A stretch of DNA of 5,986 bases from IMG/VR virus record IMGVR_UViG_2778261446_000004. One strand, given 5' to 3'. This stretch comes from a virus. Taxonomy: Duplodnaviria; Heunggongvirae; Uroviricota; Caudoviricetes. The notes beneath the pieces are model-generated. The model was given only the letters and a program-made list of their open reading frames with translations, was not told the DNA's origin and made no database searches. Shown here one piece after another: positions 1 through 5,684 of this stretch. The position numbers and the translations under genes were made by a program. Each line of letters begins with the position of its first letter. Within the stretch, counting starts at the first letter, position 1.

Positions 1-132
1 GTCCATTTCCGCGCAGACGATGACGTCACTGCCCGGCTGTATGCGCGAGGTTACCGACTGCGGCCTGAGTTTTTTAAGTGACGTAAAATCGTGTTGAGGC
101 CAACGCCCATAATGCGGGCAGTTGCCCGGCAT
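1..132 (-). CDS. insB: IS1 InsB' (catalytic part of the InsAB' transposase), first 44 codons only; partial at window edge
   Basis: Minus-strand ATG at 130..132 followed by [44 protein letters not shown], which I recognise as the IS1 InsB N-terminus. It is in the -1 frame relative to insA and runs off the window start. Confidence 0.85.
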
Positions 133-326
133 CCAACGCCATTCATGGCCATATCAATGATTTTCTGGTGCGTACCGGGTTGAGAAGCGGTGTAAGTGAA
201 CTGCAGTTGCCATGTTTTACGGCAGTGAGAGCAGAGATAGCGCTGATGTCCGGCAGTGCTTTTGCCGTTACGCACCACCCCGTCAGTAGCTGAACAGGAG
301 GGACAGCTGATAGAAACAGAAGCCAC
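51..326 (-). CDS. insA: IS1 InsA (DNA-binding regulator and N-terminal part of the InsAB' frameshift transposase)
   Basis: The 91-aa translation matches the IS1 InsA protein as I remember it, including the Cys-rich zinc-finger-like N-terminus (CPSCS...CSHC). It starts with GTG (minus strand 324..326) as in IS1, and the stop TAA is at 51..53. Confidence 0.95.
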
Positions 327-381: not shown

Positions 382-401
382 CATATACAGATGTACATGG
401 C

Positions 402-432
402 ATAAAAATAACGCGCCCAGCAAAGGCGCGCT
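402..432 (-). terminator. Rho-independent terminator for the small minus-strand ORF
   Basis: GC-rich hairpin (CGCGCC 412..417 pairs with GGCGCG 425..430, 7-nt loop). On the minus strand it is followed by a U-tract, the reverse complement of 402..410 (TATTTTTAT). It begins 5 nt after the ORF stop at 438..440. Confidence 0.6.
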
Positions 433-437
433 CTGCA

Positions 438-614
438 TCAGGTAAGTTGGCTGGAGTCAGTGGTATCCATCCAATCTGGAGCTATTCCCAGACGTTCCGC
501 TATCTCTTCGTTGGTCATGTCTTCAGTTGATAAATCCACCAGACAATCGTTAACTTCAGGATAGTCAGGGGGAAGTAACAGGTATCCCCGCAACGCTTTC
601 AGGTCTTTTTCCAT
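438..614 (-). CDS. Hypothetical small acidic protein (58 aa), function unknown; possible regulator
   Basis: ATG at 612..614 (minus) is preceded by a consensus Shine-Dalgarno AAGGAG (reverse complement of 623..628) with 8-nt spacing. Translation is MEKDLKALRGYLLLPPDYPEVNDCLVDLSTEDMTNEEIAERLGIAPDWMDTTDSSQLT. The ORF-track start (TTG at 671) has no RBS and would run through a palindrome, so the shorter ORF is preferred. The NEEIAERLGI segment resembles the first helix of LuxR/sigma region-4 HTH motifs, but the motif is incomplete. Confidence 0.5.
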   Translation of the reverse strand: MEKDLKALRGYLLLPPDYPEVNDCLVDLSTEDMTNEEIAERLGIAPDWMDTTDSSQLT

Positions 615-645
615 CTTAACACTCCTTGTTAATAGACCGCCGAAC

Positions 646-667
646 GATGGTGCAGATTTGCACCATC
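646..667. promoter_or_regulatory. Perfect palindrome (9-bp arms, 4-bp centre) in the leader/promoter region of the small ORF; candidate operator or 5' UTR hairpin
   Basis: GATGGTGCA (646..654), then GATT, then TGCACCATC (659..667). It lies 32-55 nt upstream of the ATG at 614 on the minus strand and has no adjacent U-tract, so it is not a typical terminator. Confidence 0.35.
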
Positions 668-702
668 CCAAGTGCAGGCAAGCAAACCCACCAGCACAAC
701 AA

Positions 703-731
703 ATTATCTCATACGGTAAAAACGGTGTCGG
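703..731 (-). promoter_or_regulatory. Candidate sigma70 promoter for the small minus-strand ORF
   Basis: On the minus strand: -10 GATAAT (reverse complement of 703..708) and a -35-like CCGACA (reverse complement of 726..731) with a 17-bp spacer. Weak -35, so low confidence. Confidence 0.3.
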
Positions 732-916: not shown

Positions 917-1543
917 ATGAACGTTAGAATTTACTGCCGAGCATCAACTGAGGGGCAACACGCTGATCGAGCACTTACCAGCCTACGTGAATTTTCAAAA
1001 TCAAAAGGCTGGCAGATTGCAGGAGAGTATATAGAAAATGCTAGCGGGGCGAAGCTTGAGCGCGTAGAGCTTATGCGGCTATTGTCTGAAGCCCAGTCCG
1101 GCGATCTGTTGCTAGTGGAAGCTATAGATCGTCTGAGTCGCCTAGAACATAGCGCATGGGTCGAACTGAAAGATACGCTCAACCGAAAAGGGTTAATCAT
1201 CGTATCAATGGATTTACCAACGAGCTGGCAGATGGTCGAGATGGCAGGCAATGACCTAACCAGCGGCATCCTGAGAGCCGTAAATGCCATGTTGATTGAT
1301 ATCCTTGCCACAATGGCACGGCAGGATTACGAAACACGTCGTAAACGCCAACAGCAAGGCATTGAGCGAGCTAAAAGCGAAGGAATATACATTGGCAGGG
1401 AGAAAAATCAGGAAGCCCGAGAGATCGTTAGAGAGATGTTGGAGCAAGGAGTAAAACCTGAACTCATCATGAAGGCAGCAGGAATCAGCCGAGCGACTTA
1501 CTACCGTATAAAAAGTGAGCTGTCAGTCGTAAAATCAGAATAA
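917..1543 (+). CDS. Small serine recombinase (resolvase/invertase family), 208 aa
   Basis: N-terminal catalytic motif Y6-x-R8-A-S10-T-E-G-Q14 (the canonical YxRVSTxxQ with V replaced by A, nucleophile Ser10 present). Conserved D71-R72-L-S-R75 (DRLSR motif). E/R/Q-rich helix around residues 126-141 (dimerisation helix E). C-terminal HTH-like segment (ELIMKAAGISRATYYRIKSE). Immediately preceded by repeats and its own promoter. Confidence 0.9.
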   Translation: MNVRIYCRASTEGQHADRALTSLREFSKSKGWQIAGEYIENASGAKLERVELMRLLSEAQSGDLLLVEAIDRLSRLEHSAWVELKDTLNRKGLIIVSMDLPTSWQMVEMAGNDLTSGILRAVNAMLIDILATMARQDYETRRKRQQQGIERAKSEGIYIGREKNQEAREIVREMLEQGVKPELIMKAAGISRATYYRIKSELSVVKSE

Positions 1544-1677: not shown

Positions 1678-1700
1678 TTCGATTCCTGCAGGGGACACCA
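1678..1700 (+). other. 3'-terminal 23-nt fragment of tRNA-Arg (argW type, ...TTCGATTCCTGCAGGGGACACCA); candidate att core / direct repeat marking an integrative-element junction
   Basis: TTCGATTCCTGCAGGGGACACCA reproduces the T-loop, 3' T-stem, acceptor 3' strand and CCA end of E. coli tRNA-Arg(CCU) as I recall it. The upstream sequence (tttactt...) cannot pair as a T-stem or acceptor stem, so this is not an intact tRNA gene. It lies 161 bp upstream of the integrase start codon. Confidence 0.75.
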
Positions 1701-1861: not shown

Positions 1862-3019
1862 ATGCTCACCGTTAAGCAGATTGAAGCAGCAAAGCCGAAA
1901 GAAAAACCATACCGTCTTCTCGATGGTAATGGCCTGTACCTTTATGTCCCTGTGTCAGGGAAAAAGGTATGGCAGCTTCGCTACAAGATTGACGGTAAGG
2001 AGAAAATCCTGACCGTAGGAAAATATCCGCTAATGACTTTGCAGGAGGCAAGGGATAAGGCATGGACTGCGAGGAAAGACATCTCGGTTGGCATCGATCC
2101 GGTAAAGGCGAAAAAGTCTTCGTCTAACAACAATTCCTTTAGTGCGATTTACAAGGAATGGTACGAGCACAAGAAGCAAGTATGGTCAGTAGGGTATGCG
2201 ACTGAACTTGCAAAAATGTTTGATGACGACATTTTACCTATCATCGGCGGCCTTGAAATTCAGGATATTGAGCCGATGCAACTGCTGGAAGTAATCCGCA
2301 GATTTGAAGATCGCGGTGCAATGGAGCGAGCAAATAAAGCCCGCAGAAGATGCGGCGAGGTTTTCCGTTACGCTATTGTCACCGGCAGGGCTAAATATAA
2401 CCCGGCACCTGACCTTGCTGACGCCATGAAGGGATACCGCAAGAAGAACTTCCCGTTTCTTCCAGCAGACCATATCCCTGCATTTAACAAAGCACTGACA
2501 ACATTTTCAGGAAGTATCGTATCGCTCATTGCGACCAAAGTTTTACGCTACACAGCCCTAAGAACGAAAGAGCTTCGTTCCATGCTATGGAAGAACGTCG
2601 ATTTTGAAAACAGGATTATCACCATCGACGCCAGTGTAATGAAGGGACGCAAAATTCATGTGGTTCCTATGTCAGACCAGGTAGTTGAACTTCTCACTAC
2701 GCTAAGCTCAATCACCAAACCAGTATCAGAGTTTGTTTTTGCCGGGCGCAACGATAAGAAAAAGCCAATTTGCGAGAACGCTGTACTGCTTGTGATCAAA
2801 CAAATCGGCTATGAAGGTCTGGAAAGCGGTCACGGATTCAGGCATGAATTCAGCACGATTATGAACGAGCACGAATGGCCTGCTGATGCTATTGAAGTGC
2901 AACTGGCACATGCCAACGGCGGATCTGTGCGCGGGATTTACAACCATGCTCAGTATCTCGATAAGCGCAGAGAAATGATGCAGTGGTGGGCGGACTGGAT
3001 TGATGAAAAGGTCTCCTGA
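1862..3019 (+). CDS. intS: P4-family tyrosine integrase, IntS-like (argW-associated prophage integrase), 385 aa
   Basis: The translation from the ATG at 1862 (MLTVKQIEAAKPKEKPYRLLDGNGLYLYVPVSGKKVWQLRY...) matches my recollection of E. coli CPS-53/KpLE1 IntS, and that start gives 385 aa. N-terminal DUF4102-like arm-binding region. C-terminal tyrosine-recombinase catalytic residues are present (conserved Arg in LRYTALRTKELR, HGFRHEF H-x-x-R box, Tyr in GIYNHAQYL). The upstream in-frame ATG at 1826 (ORF-track start) would add 12 residues and is an alternative start. Confidence 0.9.
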   Translation: MLTVKQIEAAKPKEKPYRLLDGNGLYLYVPVSGKKVWQLRYKIDGKEKILTVGKYPLMTLQEARDKAWTARKDISVGIDPVKAKKSSSNNNSFSAIYKEWYEHKKQVWSVGYATELAKMFDDDILPIIGGLEIQDIEPMQLLEVIRRFEDRGAMERANKARRRCGEVFRYAIVTGRAKYNPAPDLADAMKGYRKKNFPFLPADHIPAFNKALTTFSGSIVSLIATKVLRYTALRTKELRSMLWKNVDFENRIITIDASVMKGRKIHVVPMSDQVVELLTTLSSITKPVSEFVFAGRNDKKKPICENAVLLVIKQIGYEGLESGHGFRHEFSTIMNEHEWPADAIEVQLAHANGGSVRGIYNHAQYLDKRREMMQWWADWIDEKVS

Positions 3020-3346
3020 TTATATCGCCGGGTTATCGTCATCGGTGGCCCGGTTAATCAGATGCGTCAGAACAACCTTCACATCCACCTCATCCAAAAC
3101 CTCACCATCCACCGTTATCAGTGCATCACCTCTACGCTTGGCAAAGTGACAACCGCCTGAGTACGAAATCAGGTAGGTGCTTTCCGGCGATGGCTTCATA
3201 CCCTTCTCTATCACAGCAAACCCATGCGATGTCTCAATCACCAGGCTGTTAGCATTTACGCCGCAGATAGTCTCTATGGTTAGCGTGCGTTCAATATAGT
3301 CTTTTGCTGGCGATGGAAAACCCACGGTTGCCTCCACTCTTGACAC
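3020..3346 (-). CDS. UmuD'-like (peptidase S24 / UmuD-MucA family) protein, N-terminally truncated and possibly degenerate
   Basis: Near the N-terminus is GFPSPAKDYIE, matching the UmuD/MucA signature (UmuD: CGFPSPAADYVEQ). Later, RGDALITVDGEV resembles UmuD HGDIVIAAVDGEF. The ORF begins only 7 residues before the GFPSPA motif (UmuD has a 24-residue cleavable arm). I could not align a G-D-S-M catalytic-serine block (the region reads SYSGGCH). GTG start with no Shine-Dalgarno. A LexA box lies 22 bp upstream. Could be a remnant or pseudogene. Confidence 0.4.
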   Translation of the reverse strand: MSRVEATVGFPSPAKDYIERTLTIETICGVNANSLVIETSHGFAVIEKGMKPSPESTYLISYSGGCHFAKRRGDALITVDGEVLDEVDVKVVLTHLINRATDDDNPAI

Positions 3347-3387
3347 TGGATAAAAACACAGTGCAAATACTGTATATCTAACCAGTA
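3340..3387 (+). promoter_or_regulatory. SOS-regulated promoter region: -35 TTGACA (3340..3345) and LexA box TACTGTATATCTAACCAGTA (3368..3387) upstream of the DinI-like gene
   Basis: The box has the CTGT-N8-CCAG arrangement (consensus CTGT-N8-ACAG). Its 3' half TAACCAGTA is identical to the E. coli dinI operator as I recall it (ACCTGTATAAATAACCAGTA). A perfect -35 hexamer TTGACA sits 22 bp upstream of the box; no clear -10 was identified. The box ends 15 bp before the ATG at 3403, and AGAGGGAAG (3390..3398) serves as RBS. Confidence 0.6.
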
Positions 3388-3402
3388 AAGAGGGAAGCTA
3401 AA

Positions 3403-3669
3403 ATGTTTGTGGAATTGGTTTATGACAAGCGCAATGTAGAGGGGCTCGAAGGGGCCAGAGAGATTATCCTGGCAGAGCTGACGAAGCGAGTGCACCAGAT
3501 TTTCCCTGATGCCGAAGTGAGGGTGAAGCCGATGCAGGCGAACGGCCTGAATAGCGATGCAAGTAAAAACGATCGGGAGAAGCTGAACCGCATGCTGGAG
3601 GATATGTTTGAAGAGGCCGATATGTGGCTGGTATCTGAGTTCCCGACCGTTCGCCAAGTTGGGCTGTAA
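3403..3669 (+). CDS. DinI-family protein (DNA-damage-inducible protein I-like), 88 aa
   Basis: Aligns by eye to E. coli DinI across its length: N-terminal M-x-V-E-L, central ELxxRV-x-x-x-FPD-x-E-V-x-V, and C-terminal acidic E-x-AD-x-W-L-VSE (DinI ends ...ESADDWFVSE). Good RBS, upstream LexA box, downstream terminator. Confidence 0.85.
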   Translation: MFVELVYDKRNVEGLEGAREIILAELTKRVHQIFPDAEVRVKPMQANGLNSDASKNDREKLNRMLEDMFEEADMWLVSEFPTVRQVGL

Positions 3670-3673
3670 TAGG

Positions 3674-3712
3674 TAGCGGACTTCTGTTTTTCATGGGAAG
3701 TCCGCTATTTTC
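3674..3712 (+). terminator. Rho-independent terminator after the DinI-like gene
   Basis: 11-bp perfect stem (TAGCGGACTTC 3674..3684 pairs with GAAGTCCGCTA 3697..3707) with a 12-nt loop, followed by TTTT (3708..3711). Starts 4 nt after the stop codon at 3667..3669. Confidence 0.7.
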
Positions 3713-3788
3713 AACGAAATATATGATCGATTCCCTGCTATAACGCATGCTATACTGCGCACACCTTTAACTATTTATTCACTTTATA

Positions 3789-5684
3789 ATGAAACTCGCA
3801 AGCAGTGGATTCAGATTTGACATCAACGGGCTGAGGGCTGTAGCCGTATTGGCCGTTATCATTTTTCACTATAAAGATTCCTGGCTTCCCGGCGGATACG
3901 CGGGTGTGGATGTATTCTTTGTGATATCTGGTTTTTTAATGACCTCTATTATTTTCTCAGGGGTTGAGAAAGGACAATTCAATCTATTTAAATTCTACGC
4001 TGCGAGAATTAAAAGAATCATCCCTGCACTTATCGCTATCTCTATGATAGTTGTTTTTCTTGGCTACTTTCTCATCGAACCATTGAGTTACCAAATGATT
4101 GGTAATCATGTGAAATCAAGCCTTCTTTTTATATCCAATATTGTATATAGAGATGAGGCTGGTTATTTTGATACGGAATCGTCAAGGAAATATTTATTAC
4201 ATACCTGGTCGTTATCTGTCGAATGGCAATTTTATTTAATTTATCCATTACTGGTAATTTTTGCTAAAAGAGCATTATCGTTTAGCAGCTTAAAGAAAAT
4301 TGTATTGGTTGCAGTATTTGTACTCTTTTTCTTGAATATTTACGTCACAAAAACCGACCCAACATCCTCATACTACATGCTTTATTCCAGGGCGTGGGAA
4401 ATGCTTCTTGGTGGTTTGGCTTTCTTATACCCTGCTAAATCGATTTCGAATAGAACAAGAAATTACGGTTCAGTTCTATGTTTGGCGGCTTTAATTGGCA
4501 CATTTTTTATTTTGGACAACCAAGACCCTTGGCCGGGATACTATGCACTTCTTCCTGTAGTTTTGGCTTTCGGCATTATTTTGTTGAATGGAAGCAATGC
4601 TTTACTTTCAAATAAGGTTATGCAGTACATAGGACTAATATCCTATTCTATTTATTTAGTTCACTGGCCCTTGTTGGTTTTTAACAGAACCTTAAACTTT
4701 GGCTTAAATTTTATTTCTTATGTCGTGATTACGTTTGCTATTGCGACATTGATTTACATGACTTTTGAGTCAAAGAGAAGAAGTGTTATCTTTACAGTTG
4801 TTTTGTACTCGATTGCTCTTGGTGTGGCATGGAAAGTTTCAGTTGCAGGCGTAACAAGTCGTGTTAACACGGAGTTTCAGTTAACCAAGCAACAATTCAG
4901 GAATAAATTTGAAGGGCACGCCGGGTTGGGTTCTTATGATAAAGTTGATTATTTTAATTCAACAGAAAATGATTTCGAATACATATTGATTGGTGATAGC
5001 CATGCTCGTCACTACTTCCAGTATATTAATAAAAATGAAAAAGTTGCCAGCCTTGCTTTAGACGGATGCAAATCTACAGAAAATTTCTATCCGACATCCC
5101 CATCACCTTTGATGATAAAACTATGTAAAGCTCGTTATAAAATGCAGGTAGATTTCATCAATGCGCACCCAGGAAAACCAGTAATATTATCACAAAGTGG
5201 TTTCGGGGTTTTACCGAGTTCATTTTCACGTGGCACTGATGAACCTATCGGTGATGGTCATGATTTCAATTCATTGGGTTTAGAAGAACTACATCTATTT
5301 ATTAATCGGATTAAAGACACTAAACATAAACTGTTTGTTATAGGTGACACGCAAGGGAGTGAAGGCGTTATGTTTGAATGCCTTGCTAAAGAAAATCTGC
5401 CAATCAATAGAATATTCAATGTAACATCCTGCCCTATAAAACAGGAATACAAACCTAAAAAATACAATCAAATTCTTGAGGCTAACGCTGAGAAGCTTGG
5501 GTATACATATATCAGCCCTGATCCTGCGCTATGTGATGGAAAAGAATGTATAATAGTTAAAGATGGTATGCCTATGTATACTGATAGTAGCCATCTTTCA
5601 AAGCTGGCCTCTGAAATTGTAGGGGACTATGTATTTAGAGAGATAAAGAAACAAGAAATTTCAACAAGCAATAAAGATAATTAA
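3789..5684 (+). CDS. Acyltransferase-3 / SGNH fusion protein (OafA/OatA-type), probable O-antigen or surface-carbohydrate O-acetyltransferase, 631 aa
   Basis: N-terminal AT3 signature (FRFDINGLRAVAVLAVIIFH, the R-x-D-x-L-R-x-x-A motif with a conserved His). About 350 aa of repeated hydrophobic segments, consistent with a multi-pass membrane domain. C-terminal soluble domain carries an SGNH block-I GDSH motif (YILIGDSHARHYF). The coding sequence looks AT-rich by eye compared with the integrase; GC content was not computed. No Shine-Dalgarno upstream of the ATG. Confidence 0.85.
   Translation: MKLASSGFRFDINGLRAVAVLAVIIFHYKDSWLPGGYAGVDVFFVISGFLMTSIIFSGVEKGQFNLFKFYAARIKRIIPALIAISMIVVFLGYFLIEPLSYQMIGNHVKSSLLFISNIVYRDEAGYFDTESSRKYLLHTWSLSVEWQFYLIYPLLVIFAKRALSFSSLKKIVLVAVFVLFFLNIYVTKTDPTSSYYMLYSRAWEMLLGGLAFLYPAKSISNRTRNYGSVLCLAALIGTFFILDNQDPWPGYYALLPVVLAFGIILLNGSNALLSNKVMQYIGLISYSIYLVHWPLLVFNRTLNFGLNFISYVVITFAIATLIYMTFESKRRSVIFTVVLYSIALGVAWKVSVAGVTSRVNTEFQLTKQQFRNKFEGHAGLGSYDKVDYFNSTENDFEYILIGDSHARHYFQYINKNEKVASLALDGCKSTENFYPTSPSPLMIKLCKARYKMQVDFINAHPGKPVILSQSGFGVLPSSFSRGTDEPIGDGHDFNSLGLEELHLFINRIKDTKHKLFVIGDTQGSEGVMFECLAKENLPINRIFNVTSCPIKQEYKPKKYNQILEANAEKLGYTYISPDPALCDGKECIIVKDGMPMYTDSSHLSKLASEIVGDYVFREIKKQEISTSNKDN

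Follow-up and report, generated by a model that had tools for sequence, protein, structure and literature searches.

The window studied here is a stretch of 5,986 nucleotides from the virus record IMGVR_UViG_2778261446_000004, and the subject of this analysis is a small open reading frame (ORF) at 438..614 of its minus strand, which encodes an acidic protein of 58 residues and diverges from a gene for a small serine recombinase (hereafter the resolvase). As judged from comparison of homologous loci, this small ORF is a real, selected protein-coding gene. It is, on the same comparative basis, a backbone gene of small integrative islands in Escherichia and Citrobacter and is not tied to the resolvase. 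For its product we tentatively propose a role that would be exerted through binding to another protein.

Coding status and expression signals of the small ORF

Ten distinct alleles of the small ORF were compared by Nei-Gojobori analysis, which gave proportions of non-synonymous (pN) and synonymous (pS) differences of 0.119 and 0.302 respectively, and a ratio of the two substitution rates (dN/dS) of ~0.33. The ratio was 0.22 in the N-terminal helix (residues 1-22), 0.59 in residues 23-33, 0.27 in the part that resembles a helix-turn-helix (HTH) motif (residues 34-50) and 0.35 in the C-terminal tail (residues 51-58). Comparisons across lineages, in which the proteins are 45 to 49% identical and synonymous sites are near saturation, gave dN/dS values of 0.14 to 0.36 (Fisher p 3e-6 to 4e-3). 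The frame of 58 codons was intact in 12 of 12 distinct alleles of the examined loci, down to 47-49% identity and with a single allele of 64 residues as the exception in length, and eight residues were unchanged across lineages. The small ORF is therefore regarded as a selected coding gene because dN/dS is below 1, its length is nearly fixed and its Shine-Dalgarno sequence and ATG are conserved.

Homologues fell into about 30 clusters, all from Escherichia or Citrobacter, nearly all of 58 residues and all beginning with MEKDLK. This common start agrees with the preliminary description of this DNA, which was made from the letters alone and had suspected that a model of 77 residues starting at TTG 671 was an over-extension. 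Moreover, in-frame stops are found between the TTG and the ATG in loci L006 and L025, and the 77-residue model therefore cannot be general. The same description had considered that the ORF might lack conservation at homologous loci or might be what is left of a larger gene. Neither was observed: of 5426 complete E. coli genomes, 496 to 521 contain the ORF, and its identification as the C-terminal remnant of a larger disrupted gene was rejected, since the start is conserved and no longer homologue was found among 1.84 billion representatives.

That the ORF has no function, and persists by chance or because the DNA itself is constrained, would fit with its being an orphan of narrow taxonomic range, with the low confidence of structure prediction and with the RefSeq record of strain E2348/69, which leaves the homologue unannotated. 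This explanation is nevertheless extremely improbable, because the frame has survived in all 12 alleles with dN/dS significantly below 1, and neither the eight residues nor the Shine-Dalgarno sequence and ATG vary.

The gene and its signals are arranged as follows.

382..399, minus strand: remnant of the backbone tail, located by alignment of downstream regions and cut here by IS1
400..432, minus strand: intrinsic terminator of the small ORF (9-bp stem with 6 G-C pairs, 5-nt loop, then AUUUUUAU)
438..614, minus strand: coding sequence of the small ORF, 58-residue acidic protein (ATG 614..612, stop TGA 440..438)
622..627, minus strand: Shine-Dalgarno sequence AAGGAG, 7 nt before the ATG
646..667, both strands: perfect 9-bp palindrome with a 4-nt spacer, corresponding to leader hairpin 2, 32 nt upstream of the ATG
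672..697, minus strand: leader hairpin 1 (GUGCUGGUGGG...CUUGCCUGCAC), from RNA folding and RNAalifold
703..731, minus strand: sigma-70-type promoter of the small ORF, a promoter-like site from a consensus scan

The product (MEKDLKALRGYLLLPPDYPEVNDCLVDLSTEDMTNEEIAERLGIAPDWMDTTDSSQLT) has an exact RefSeq entry, WP_000409796.1, named 'hypothetical protein'. It contains 14 Asp and Glu residues against 4 Lys and Arg residues, with a net charge of -10 and an isoelectric point of ~4.05. The promoter-like site consists of a -35 hexamer CCGACA (731..726), a 17-nt spacer and a -10 hexamer GATAAT (708..703), which is extended by a TG at 711..710 (TGaGATAAT, 711..703). Both hexamers are unchanged across all main-clade loci, and in the very divergent allele of L020 the promoter block GGTGTCGGGCT and ATTATC are still recognisable. 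AAGGAG and the ATG are likewise invariant in all main-clade loci, and L020 has AAGGAT. The stem-loop of the terminator itself spans 432..410 and AUUUUUAU comes next; this terminator is kept in all main-clade loci, and a hairpin followed by a T-rich stretch could be read from the sequence at the equivalent place in loci of the der type (see below). In other loci a backbone tail of ~130 nt follows the terminator.

Together, these signals suggest that the small ORF is an independently transcribed unit, with an extended -10, a leader of ~80 nt carrying two stem-loops, a consensus Shine-Dalgarno sequence and its own terminator, and they look built for steady expression. The preliminary description of an acidic 58-residue ORF with translation signals and its own terminator thus stands in every feature, with small corrections. 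The AAGGAG ribosome-binding site is present but lies 7 nt, not 8 nt, from the ATG; the terminator is found just beyond the segment that had been delimited; and the divergent arrangement with the serine recombinase at 917-1543 was recovered with a spacer of 302 nt. The ORF had also been considered probably expressed, which is in agreement with a promoter, Shine-Dalgarno sequence, ATG and terminator that are invariant, or nearly so, over ~10 diverged alleles. A component of a type II toxin-antitoxin system was considered as another candidate and rejected: the small ORF appears monocistronic, having its own promoter and terminator, and its downstream neighbours change with each cargo type.

Host islands and the adjacent resolvase

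The locus was detected in 550 of 5426 complete E. coli genomes, in each case on the chromosome; in this set of complete genomes the resolvase was counted in 550 and the small ORF in 521. The features of the window on the resolvase side are the following.

786-798, 825-840 and, inverted, 895-910: three GTCTCAAT(A/T)GGGT repeats, which flank the resolvase promoter (852-880)
917..1543, plus strand: small serine recombinase of the resolvase/invertase type, 208 residues (Pfam Resolvase, E 2e-23; PHROG 125 'DNA invertase')
1678..1700, plus strand: attR, a 23-nt copy of the argW tRNA 3' end (exact match to tRNA-Arg positions 53-75)

The islands of this family are ~7 to 9 kb in size. Those at argW lie downstream of the tRNA gene, and their genes come in the order P4-type integrase, a gene overlapping int, AlpA, genes of 63, 64 and 128 residues (p63, p64 and p128), a G2P-like rolling-circle Rep, variable cargo, the small ORF on the opposite strand, the resolvase and attR. 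In each of 13 distinct argW contexts the small ORF is located between the cargo and the resolvase. The repeat of the argW 3' end that is seen in the window also bounds the island in L003, at 478 and 9275. As the attR repeat lies downstream of the resolvase, the small ORF is inside an att-bounded island, and these two genes are the last of the ~9-kb argW island before attR. The cargo varies by strain and includes a ThsA-like SIR2 protein, an AriA/PtuA-like ATPase pair, a PDC-M28 candidate, a Sll1717-type ATPase, a HAD hydrolase with a dCTP-deaminase-like protein, and others. The islands are without capsid or packaging genes.

A second island lineage, located between der and yfgJ, was found in 24 genomes including that of the enteropathogenic E. 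coli (EPEC) strain E2348/69. It comprises an integrase, a 129-residue protein (59% identical to the argW version), a Rep (32%), cargo and a 58-residue homologue of the small-ORF product (45 to 49%), whose gene is divergent from that of a 199-residue AlpA-domain protein. The cargo consists of CBASS (cyclic-oligonucleotide-based anti-phage signalling system) genes, of Hailong genes according to their annotation, or of unknown genes. Only the integrase type, the 128-residue protein, Rep, the AlpA domain and the small ORF are common to the argW and der/yfgJ lineages. The der-type homologue of EPEC E2348/69 (NZ_CP059840.2) lies at 9021-9197 of the minus strand in L032, with equivalents in L005 and L033; that this intact 58-residue homologue is unannotated in the RefSeq record of E2348/69 is a missed gene call.

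Searches of wider collections did not extend this distribution. No homologue of the small ORF was matched in the plasmid and phage collections (tblastn), four spurious matches only were obtained in a collection with one genome per species, and the IMG/VR search returned only E. coli prophage-boundary calls together with two false matches inside ribonucleotide reductase. The 128-residue backbone protein, used as a marker for similar islands in other genera, was confined to E. coli.

The preliminary description had suggested that the small ORF, given its divergent arrangement, could encode a factor accessory to the recombinase, such as a directionality factor or a host-factor mimic, and had proposed a co-occurrence analysis. 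The two genes do form a divergent adjacent pair in every argW-type locus seen, and in complete E. coli genomes they are nearly always found together, because they are neighbours on one island. The association is however not obligate. The small ORF occurs in the der/yfgJ islands, which have no resolvase, and, conversely, Enterobacter plasmids carry resolvases 82% identical to ours, with the same upstream GTCTCAATAGGGT motif (~2905-2965 in L034) and promoter, and no homologue of the small ORF was found in the plasmid collection. The histories of the two genes are also discordant: across loci the resolvase keeps an identity of 96.6 to 100%, against 47 to 83% for the small-ORF alleles, and even beside identical resolvases these alleles differ from each other at pS 0.16 to 0.39. 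Nor are small resolvases or invertases known to need such accessory factors. These sequence comparisons show that the small ORF is independent of the resolvase, and a function as its accessory or regulatory factor, whether in directionality, as a host-factor mimic or as a co-regulator of the shared intergenic region, is very unlikely; the earlier suggestion was thus not borne out.

Two of the three repeats on the resolvase side are direct and one is inverted, and together they form a perfect inverted repeat of 16 bp that encloses the resolvase promoter. Hardly any variation in these repeats is seen among the loci, L020 included, and they are putative res sites or sites of autoregulation by the resolvase. 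Besides the intact resolvase, L011 and L023-L028 contain a partial copy of it (residues 114-208, 85 to 86% identical; ~7499-7784, minus strand), ~1.3 kb further on and beside a 263-residue ORF. This copy is probably left over from an older island.

HTH-like segment, leader hairpins and possible function

The preliminary description did not recognise the family of the product and noted a stretch, EEIAERLGI, reminiscent of an HTH without a complete motif. Sensitive profile searches and structure prediction, which it had recommended, led to the same picture, with no family of known function and no fold match. Six HTH families of Pfam match the product below threshold and in the same register, at residues ~25-46; the best match is Sigma70_r4_2 (16.3 bits for a cutoff of 25.7), and the others reach 12 to 14 bits for cutoffs of 22 to 25. 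Residues ~29-46 (TEDMTNEEIAERLGIAP) align to the second helix and the turn of several HTH profiles, and all these alignments end at residues 44-46, short of the recognition helix. By eye, residues 35-54 fit the canonical HTH spacing, with Ala39, Gly43, Ile44, Met49 and Ile52 (the family consensus; Thr in the window allele). The positions that normally touch DNA are occupied by Ala-Pro-Asp and then Asp-Thr, within a segment PDWMD(T/S)xD. NCBIfam and PADLOC scans of the product gave no match, and PHROG 35119, which matches it, is annotated 'unknown function'. A search with a hidden Markov model profile against the 1.84 billion representatives returned 13 matches, which are the family itself, the divergent members P0033 and P0039, and generic HTH matches to 'EEIAExLG'. 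In the PDB, the sequence search retrieved a designed HTH-repeat protein and other motif-level matches only, and no structural match of the model to PDB folds, any HTH included, was found. Two AlphaFold2 runs gave helical models of modest confidence from a shallow alignment, with predicted local distance difference test scores of 68.3 and 70.2 and a predicted template modelling score of 0.32. The product is not, on these profile data, a member of an HTH family; it would be at most an HTH-derived or HTH-mimicking scaffold. Given the net charge of -10 and the acidic recognition-helix positions, binding to DNA is unlikely.

The leader contains, exactly as first described, a perfect 9-bp palindrome at 646..667, with arms GATGGTGCA (646-654) and TGCACCATC (659-667) separated by 4 nt. 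No other perfect inverted repeat of the window has arms of 9 bp or more and a loop of 10 nt or less; in first-order Markov simulations such a palindrome arises by chance at a rate of 0.25 per window and in 1.2% of 302-nt pieces. The minus strand of the leader (697..615) folds into two hairpins with a minimum free energy of -32.2 kcal/mol (z = -2.9), and RNAalifold found the same two-hairpin structure on the leader alignment. Covariation was evaluated on seven distinct but related sequences. In hairpin 1, 97% of cells are paired and no double compensatory change was seen; L020 keeps a leader hairpin with the shared core GCUGGUGG. In hairpin 2, 93.7% of cells are paired and 3 of 9 pairs are altered on both sides, two of them in L004/L018 (AATGGTACA..TGTACCATT) and one in L025 (GATGA..TCATC). 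The covariation score of the whole structure was reached by 17 of 500 shuffles. With so few related sequences, this covariation is suggestive, not conclusive. Since wobble and mismatch counts are about equal on either strand of the palindrome, an RNA stem and a DNA palindrome are indistinguishable here.

Checked as a possible iteron or origin, neither the palindrome nor the promoter block recurs elsewhere in the island, and Rfam and tRNA scans of the window gave nothing relevant. The palindrome, with its compensatory changes, is confined to the main clade and absent from the leaders of L020 (P0033 type) and of the der type, the two most divergent lineages in which the protein persists; this speaks against its being an operator that the protein requires. 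Should transcription start ~6 nt past the predicted -10, hairpin 1 would form the extreme 5' terminus of the mRNA, where stabilising stem-loops are usually found. The most likely role of the leader hairpins would be in stabilising or tuning the mRNA, and not that of an operator. Another perfect palindrome, of 12 bp (AGGCATAACGCA / TGCGTTATGCCT) and with the same 4-nt spacer, was observed in L020 at 9807-9834, upstream of the small-ORF promoter.

The small ORF is also highly diverse. Within the main argW clade, pS is 0.02 for rep, 0.03 for alpA, 0.04 for p64, 0.065 for p63, 0.07 for p128, 0.15 for the resolvase and 0.31 for the small ORF, which is 2 to 13 times the value of the other backbone genes. 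Its protein shows 69 to 86% identity in comparisons in which other backbone proteins reach 94 to 100%, apart from the product of the int-overlapping gene and, to a lesser degree, p63 (86 to 98%). The int-overlapping gene (240 to 251 residues; 1246-2001 in L002, where int ends at 1253, and likewise in L003, L006, L011 and others) is the sole other hypervariable backbone gene, with 68 to 99% identity. Small-ORF alleles are mosaic: L006 and L011-L014 have the same tail (...TVDPSKLT) and the same cargo with a different middle, and L002 and L026 have the same tail (...VPDWMDAIDTNQLA) with different cargo. The most divergent allele (P0033 type, L019/L020) is 51% identical to that of the reference L002 and is accompanied by a Rep of 49% identity, in flanks where the 128-residue protein is 100% and the resolvase 97.6% identical to those of L002. 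In L019/L020 the segment of Rep, cargo and small ORF was exchanged as one module. The high diversity of the small ORF reflects either old alleles imported at the edge of cargo exchange or a specificity determinant under diversifying pressure, and the finding of dN/dS below 1 everywhere does not decide between the two.

Because charge and recognition-helix residues disfavour DNA binding, we propose a protein-binding mode of action, in which the product might serve as an acidic decoy or as an HTH or DNA mimic; this proposal is made tentatively, as a possibility somewhat short of probable. The protein would sequester or retarget a basic DNA-binding or phage protein, candidate partners being factors of a helper phage or of the host, or else AlpA, Rep or Int of the island itself, and the variable segment (residues 23-33) together with the C-terminal tail would set partner specificity. 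A further-reaching version, which we consider doubtful, is that this 58-residue HTH-shaped protein could be the dedicated trans-acting specificity factor of undescribed, minimalist, rolling-circle, satellite-like defence islands of Escherichia. It would gate or trigger their mobilisation by binding a DNA-binding protein of the helper phage or host, or AlpA or Rep, and its mosaic alleles would record an arms race of partner switching. The evidence counted for a part in partner specificity, in either version, is the pS of 0.31, the low protein identity among alleles, their mosaicism and the most divergent allele travelling with the most divergent Rep. Several points weigh against the proposal of a protein-binding factor. 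Position beside the cargo-exchange region, rather than selection on the protein, could by itself account for the high pS and the mosaicism, dN/dS below 1 throughout the ORF gives no direct sign of an arms race, and ~10 alleles only were analysed. Moreover, the low AlphaFold2 confidence may come from the shallow alignment alone, the satellite-like label of the islands rests on gene content, and no paper mentioning ECs_3239 was found in the literature.

Among the alternatives, an anti-restriction or anti-defence DNA mimic, shielding the island DNA as it enters a new host, is unlikely. A small and extremely acidic protein (a charge that is necessary for this role, not specific to it), encoded on a presumably mobile element with strong expression signals and high allelic diversity, would suit such a role, but no known anti-restriction family was matched in Pfam, PHROGs of known function, NCBIfam or PADLOC, no fold was matched, and no homologue is found in the plasmid and phage collections, although such genes usually spread widely. 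We attach less probability still to a minimal HTH autoregulator with the 646-667 palindrome as its operator. The HTH-like spacing, the six HTH families matched below threshold in one register and a palindrome in the gene's own leader, whose half-sites change together in L004/L018 and L025, are what this explanation can call on. It is at odds with the net charge of -10, with the residues at the recognition-helix positions (Ala-Pro-Asp and Asp-Thr), and with profile matches that stay below threshold and end ahead of that helix. In addition, the palindrome is absent in L020 and in der-type loci, though the HTH-like segment is conserved there, its variants do not track those of the protein (L031 has the window's palindrome and a different protein), and its location at ~+30 to +50 would be unusual for an operator.

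It is similarly improbable that the unit acts mainly in cis, with promoter, leader and terminator insulating or driving the adjacent cargo and the peptide being incidental, as in a leader-peptide or attenuator-like arrangement. The first cargo gene is downstream on the same strand in 8 of 9 argW-type cargo variants, the conserved backbone ends ~130 nt past the ORF and the leader is structured; the amino-acid sequence itself is nevertheless under selection (dN/dS 0.14 to 0.36 between lineages), a strong and conserved terminator separates the ORF from the cargo, and the cargo is on the opposite strand in 3 of 3 der-type loci and in L019/L020.

Comparison with known systems and other features of the window

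The small-ORF product resembles the HTH of sigma-70 region 4 and LuxR (GerE) in its Ala-x3-Gly-(Ile/Val) spacing and in the hydrophobic positions that follow, and differs from it by sub-threshold scores, the acidic PDWMD segment and the lack of an HTH match in the PDB. Phages and mobile elements encode small acidic DNA mimics or decoys such as Ocr, ArdA, Arn, phi29 p56 and T7 Gp2. The product would be analogous to these in being tiny, strongly acidic and borne by a presumably mobile element with strong stand-alone signals, but it is without sequence or fold similarity to them. The divergence from a small serine recombinase gene, with three 13-bp motif repeats beside the recombinase promoter, recalls the tnpA-res-tnpR arrangement of the Tn3 family, in which a gene diverges from that of a resolvase and the res sites are in between. 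Here, however, the divergent gene encodes a 58-residue protein and not a transposase, and the repeats are grouped towards the resolvase, which they also accompany on plasmids that lack the small ORF.

At the level of the whole island, the closest comparison is with the phage-inducible chromosomal minimalist islands (PICMI), satellites of Vibrionaceae composed of int, iolg, alpA, up1, prim and up2 (PMC10803314). The argW island is likewise small, with a tRNA-end repeat, a P4-type integrase, an int-overlapping gene (like iolg), AlpA and a replication initiator, and the small ORF, like up1 and up2, is a conserved backbone gene without an assigned function. In contrast to PICMI, it uses a G2P-like rolling-circle Rep and not a primase, has a serine resolvase and carries genes unrelated in sequence. 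'Integrase-only' defence islands, whose movement and control are an open question, have been noted in E. coli (PMC10121019), and the argW islands resemble them in being small with variable defence cargo. EcCIMP1 is a different, primase-type phage-inducible chromosomal island (PMC11773190). Searches of the literature for the locus tag, for argW defence hotspots and for PICMI-like elements of E. coli found no paper describing these islands and no experimental account of their induction, replication or transfer by a helper phage.

The small ORF is thus viewed as an uncharacterised backbone gene of a satellite-like defence island, and nothing yet shows an unusual mechanism. Its host islands bring many anti-phage systems to ~10% of complete E. 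coli genomes, among them those of O157:H7 Sakai and EPEC E2348/69. Being one of about five genes common to two diverged island lineages, and among the two most variable backbone genes, it is a sensible handle on island regulation or mobilisation through this combination of conservation and variability. Should its product turn out to be a decoy that targets a phage or host protein, a new small-protein family would join the interaction factors of mobile elements and phages; if loss of the small ORF gives no phenotype, it is a routine hypothetical gene.

The remainder of the window contains parts of two other elements. An IS1 ends at 381 according to our reading of the sequence (an ORF at 51-326, minus strand, matches InsA in Pfam), ~55 nt past the stop of the small ORF. 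It sits within the ~130-nt backbone tail, and the cargo and left part of the island are gone in this strain. On the other side, an IntS prophage occupies the attR copy at 1678-1700, the argW site being filled in tandem, and the end of this prophage accounts for 1862-5920. In L001 a further IntS copy and an O-antigen polymerase were observed upstream. The following genes were identified at the prophage end.

3020-3346, minus strand: truncated UmuD-like ORF
3403-3669: DinI
3789-5684: 631-residue acyltransferase with AT3 and SGNH domains, likely involved in O-antigen acetylation
5738-5920, minus strand: tail-fibre assembly fragment

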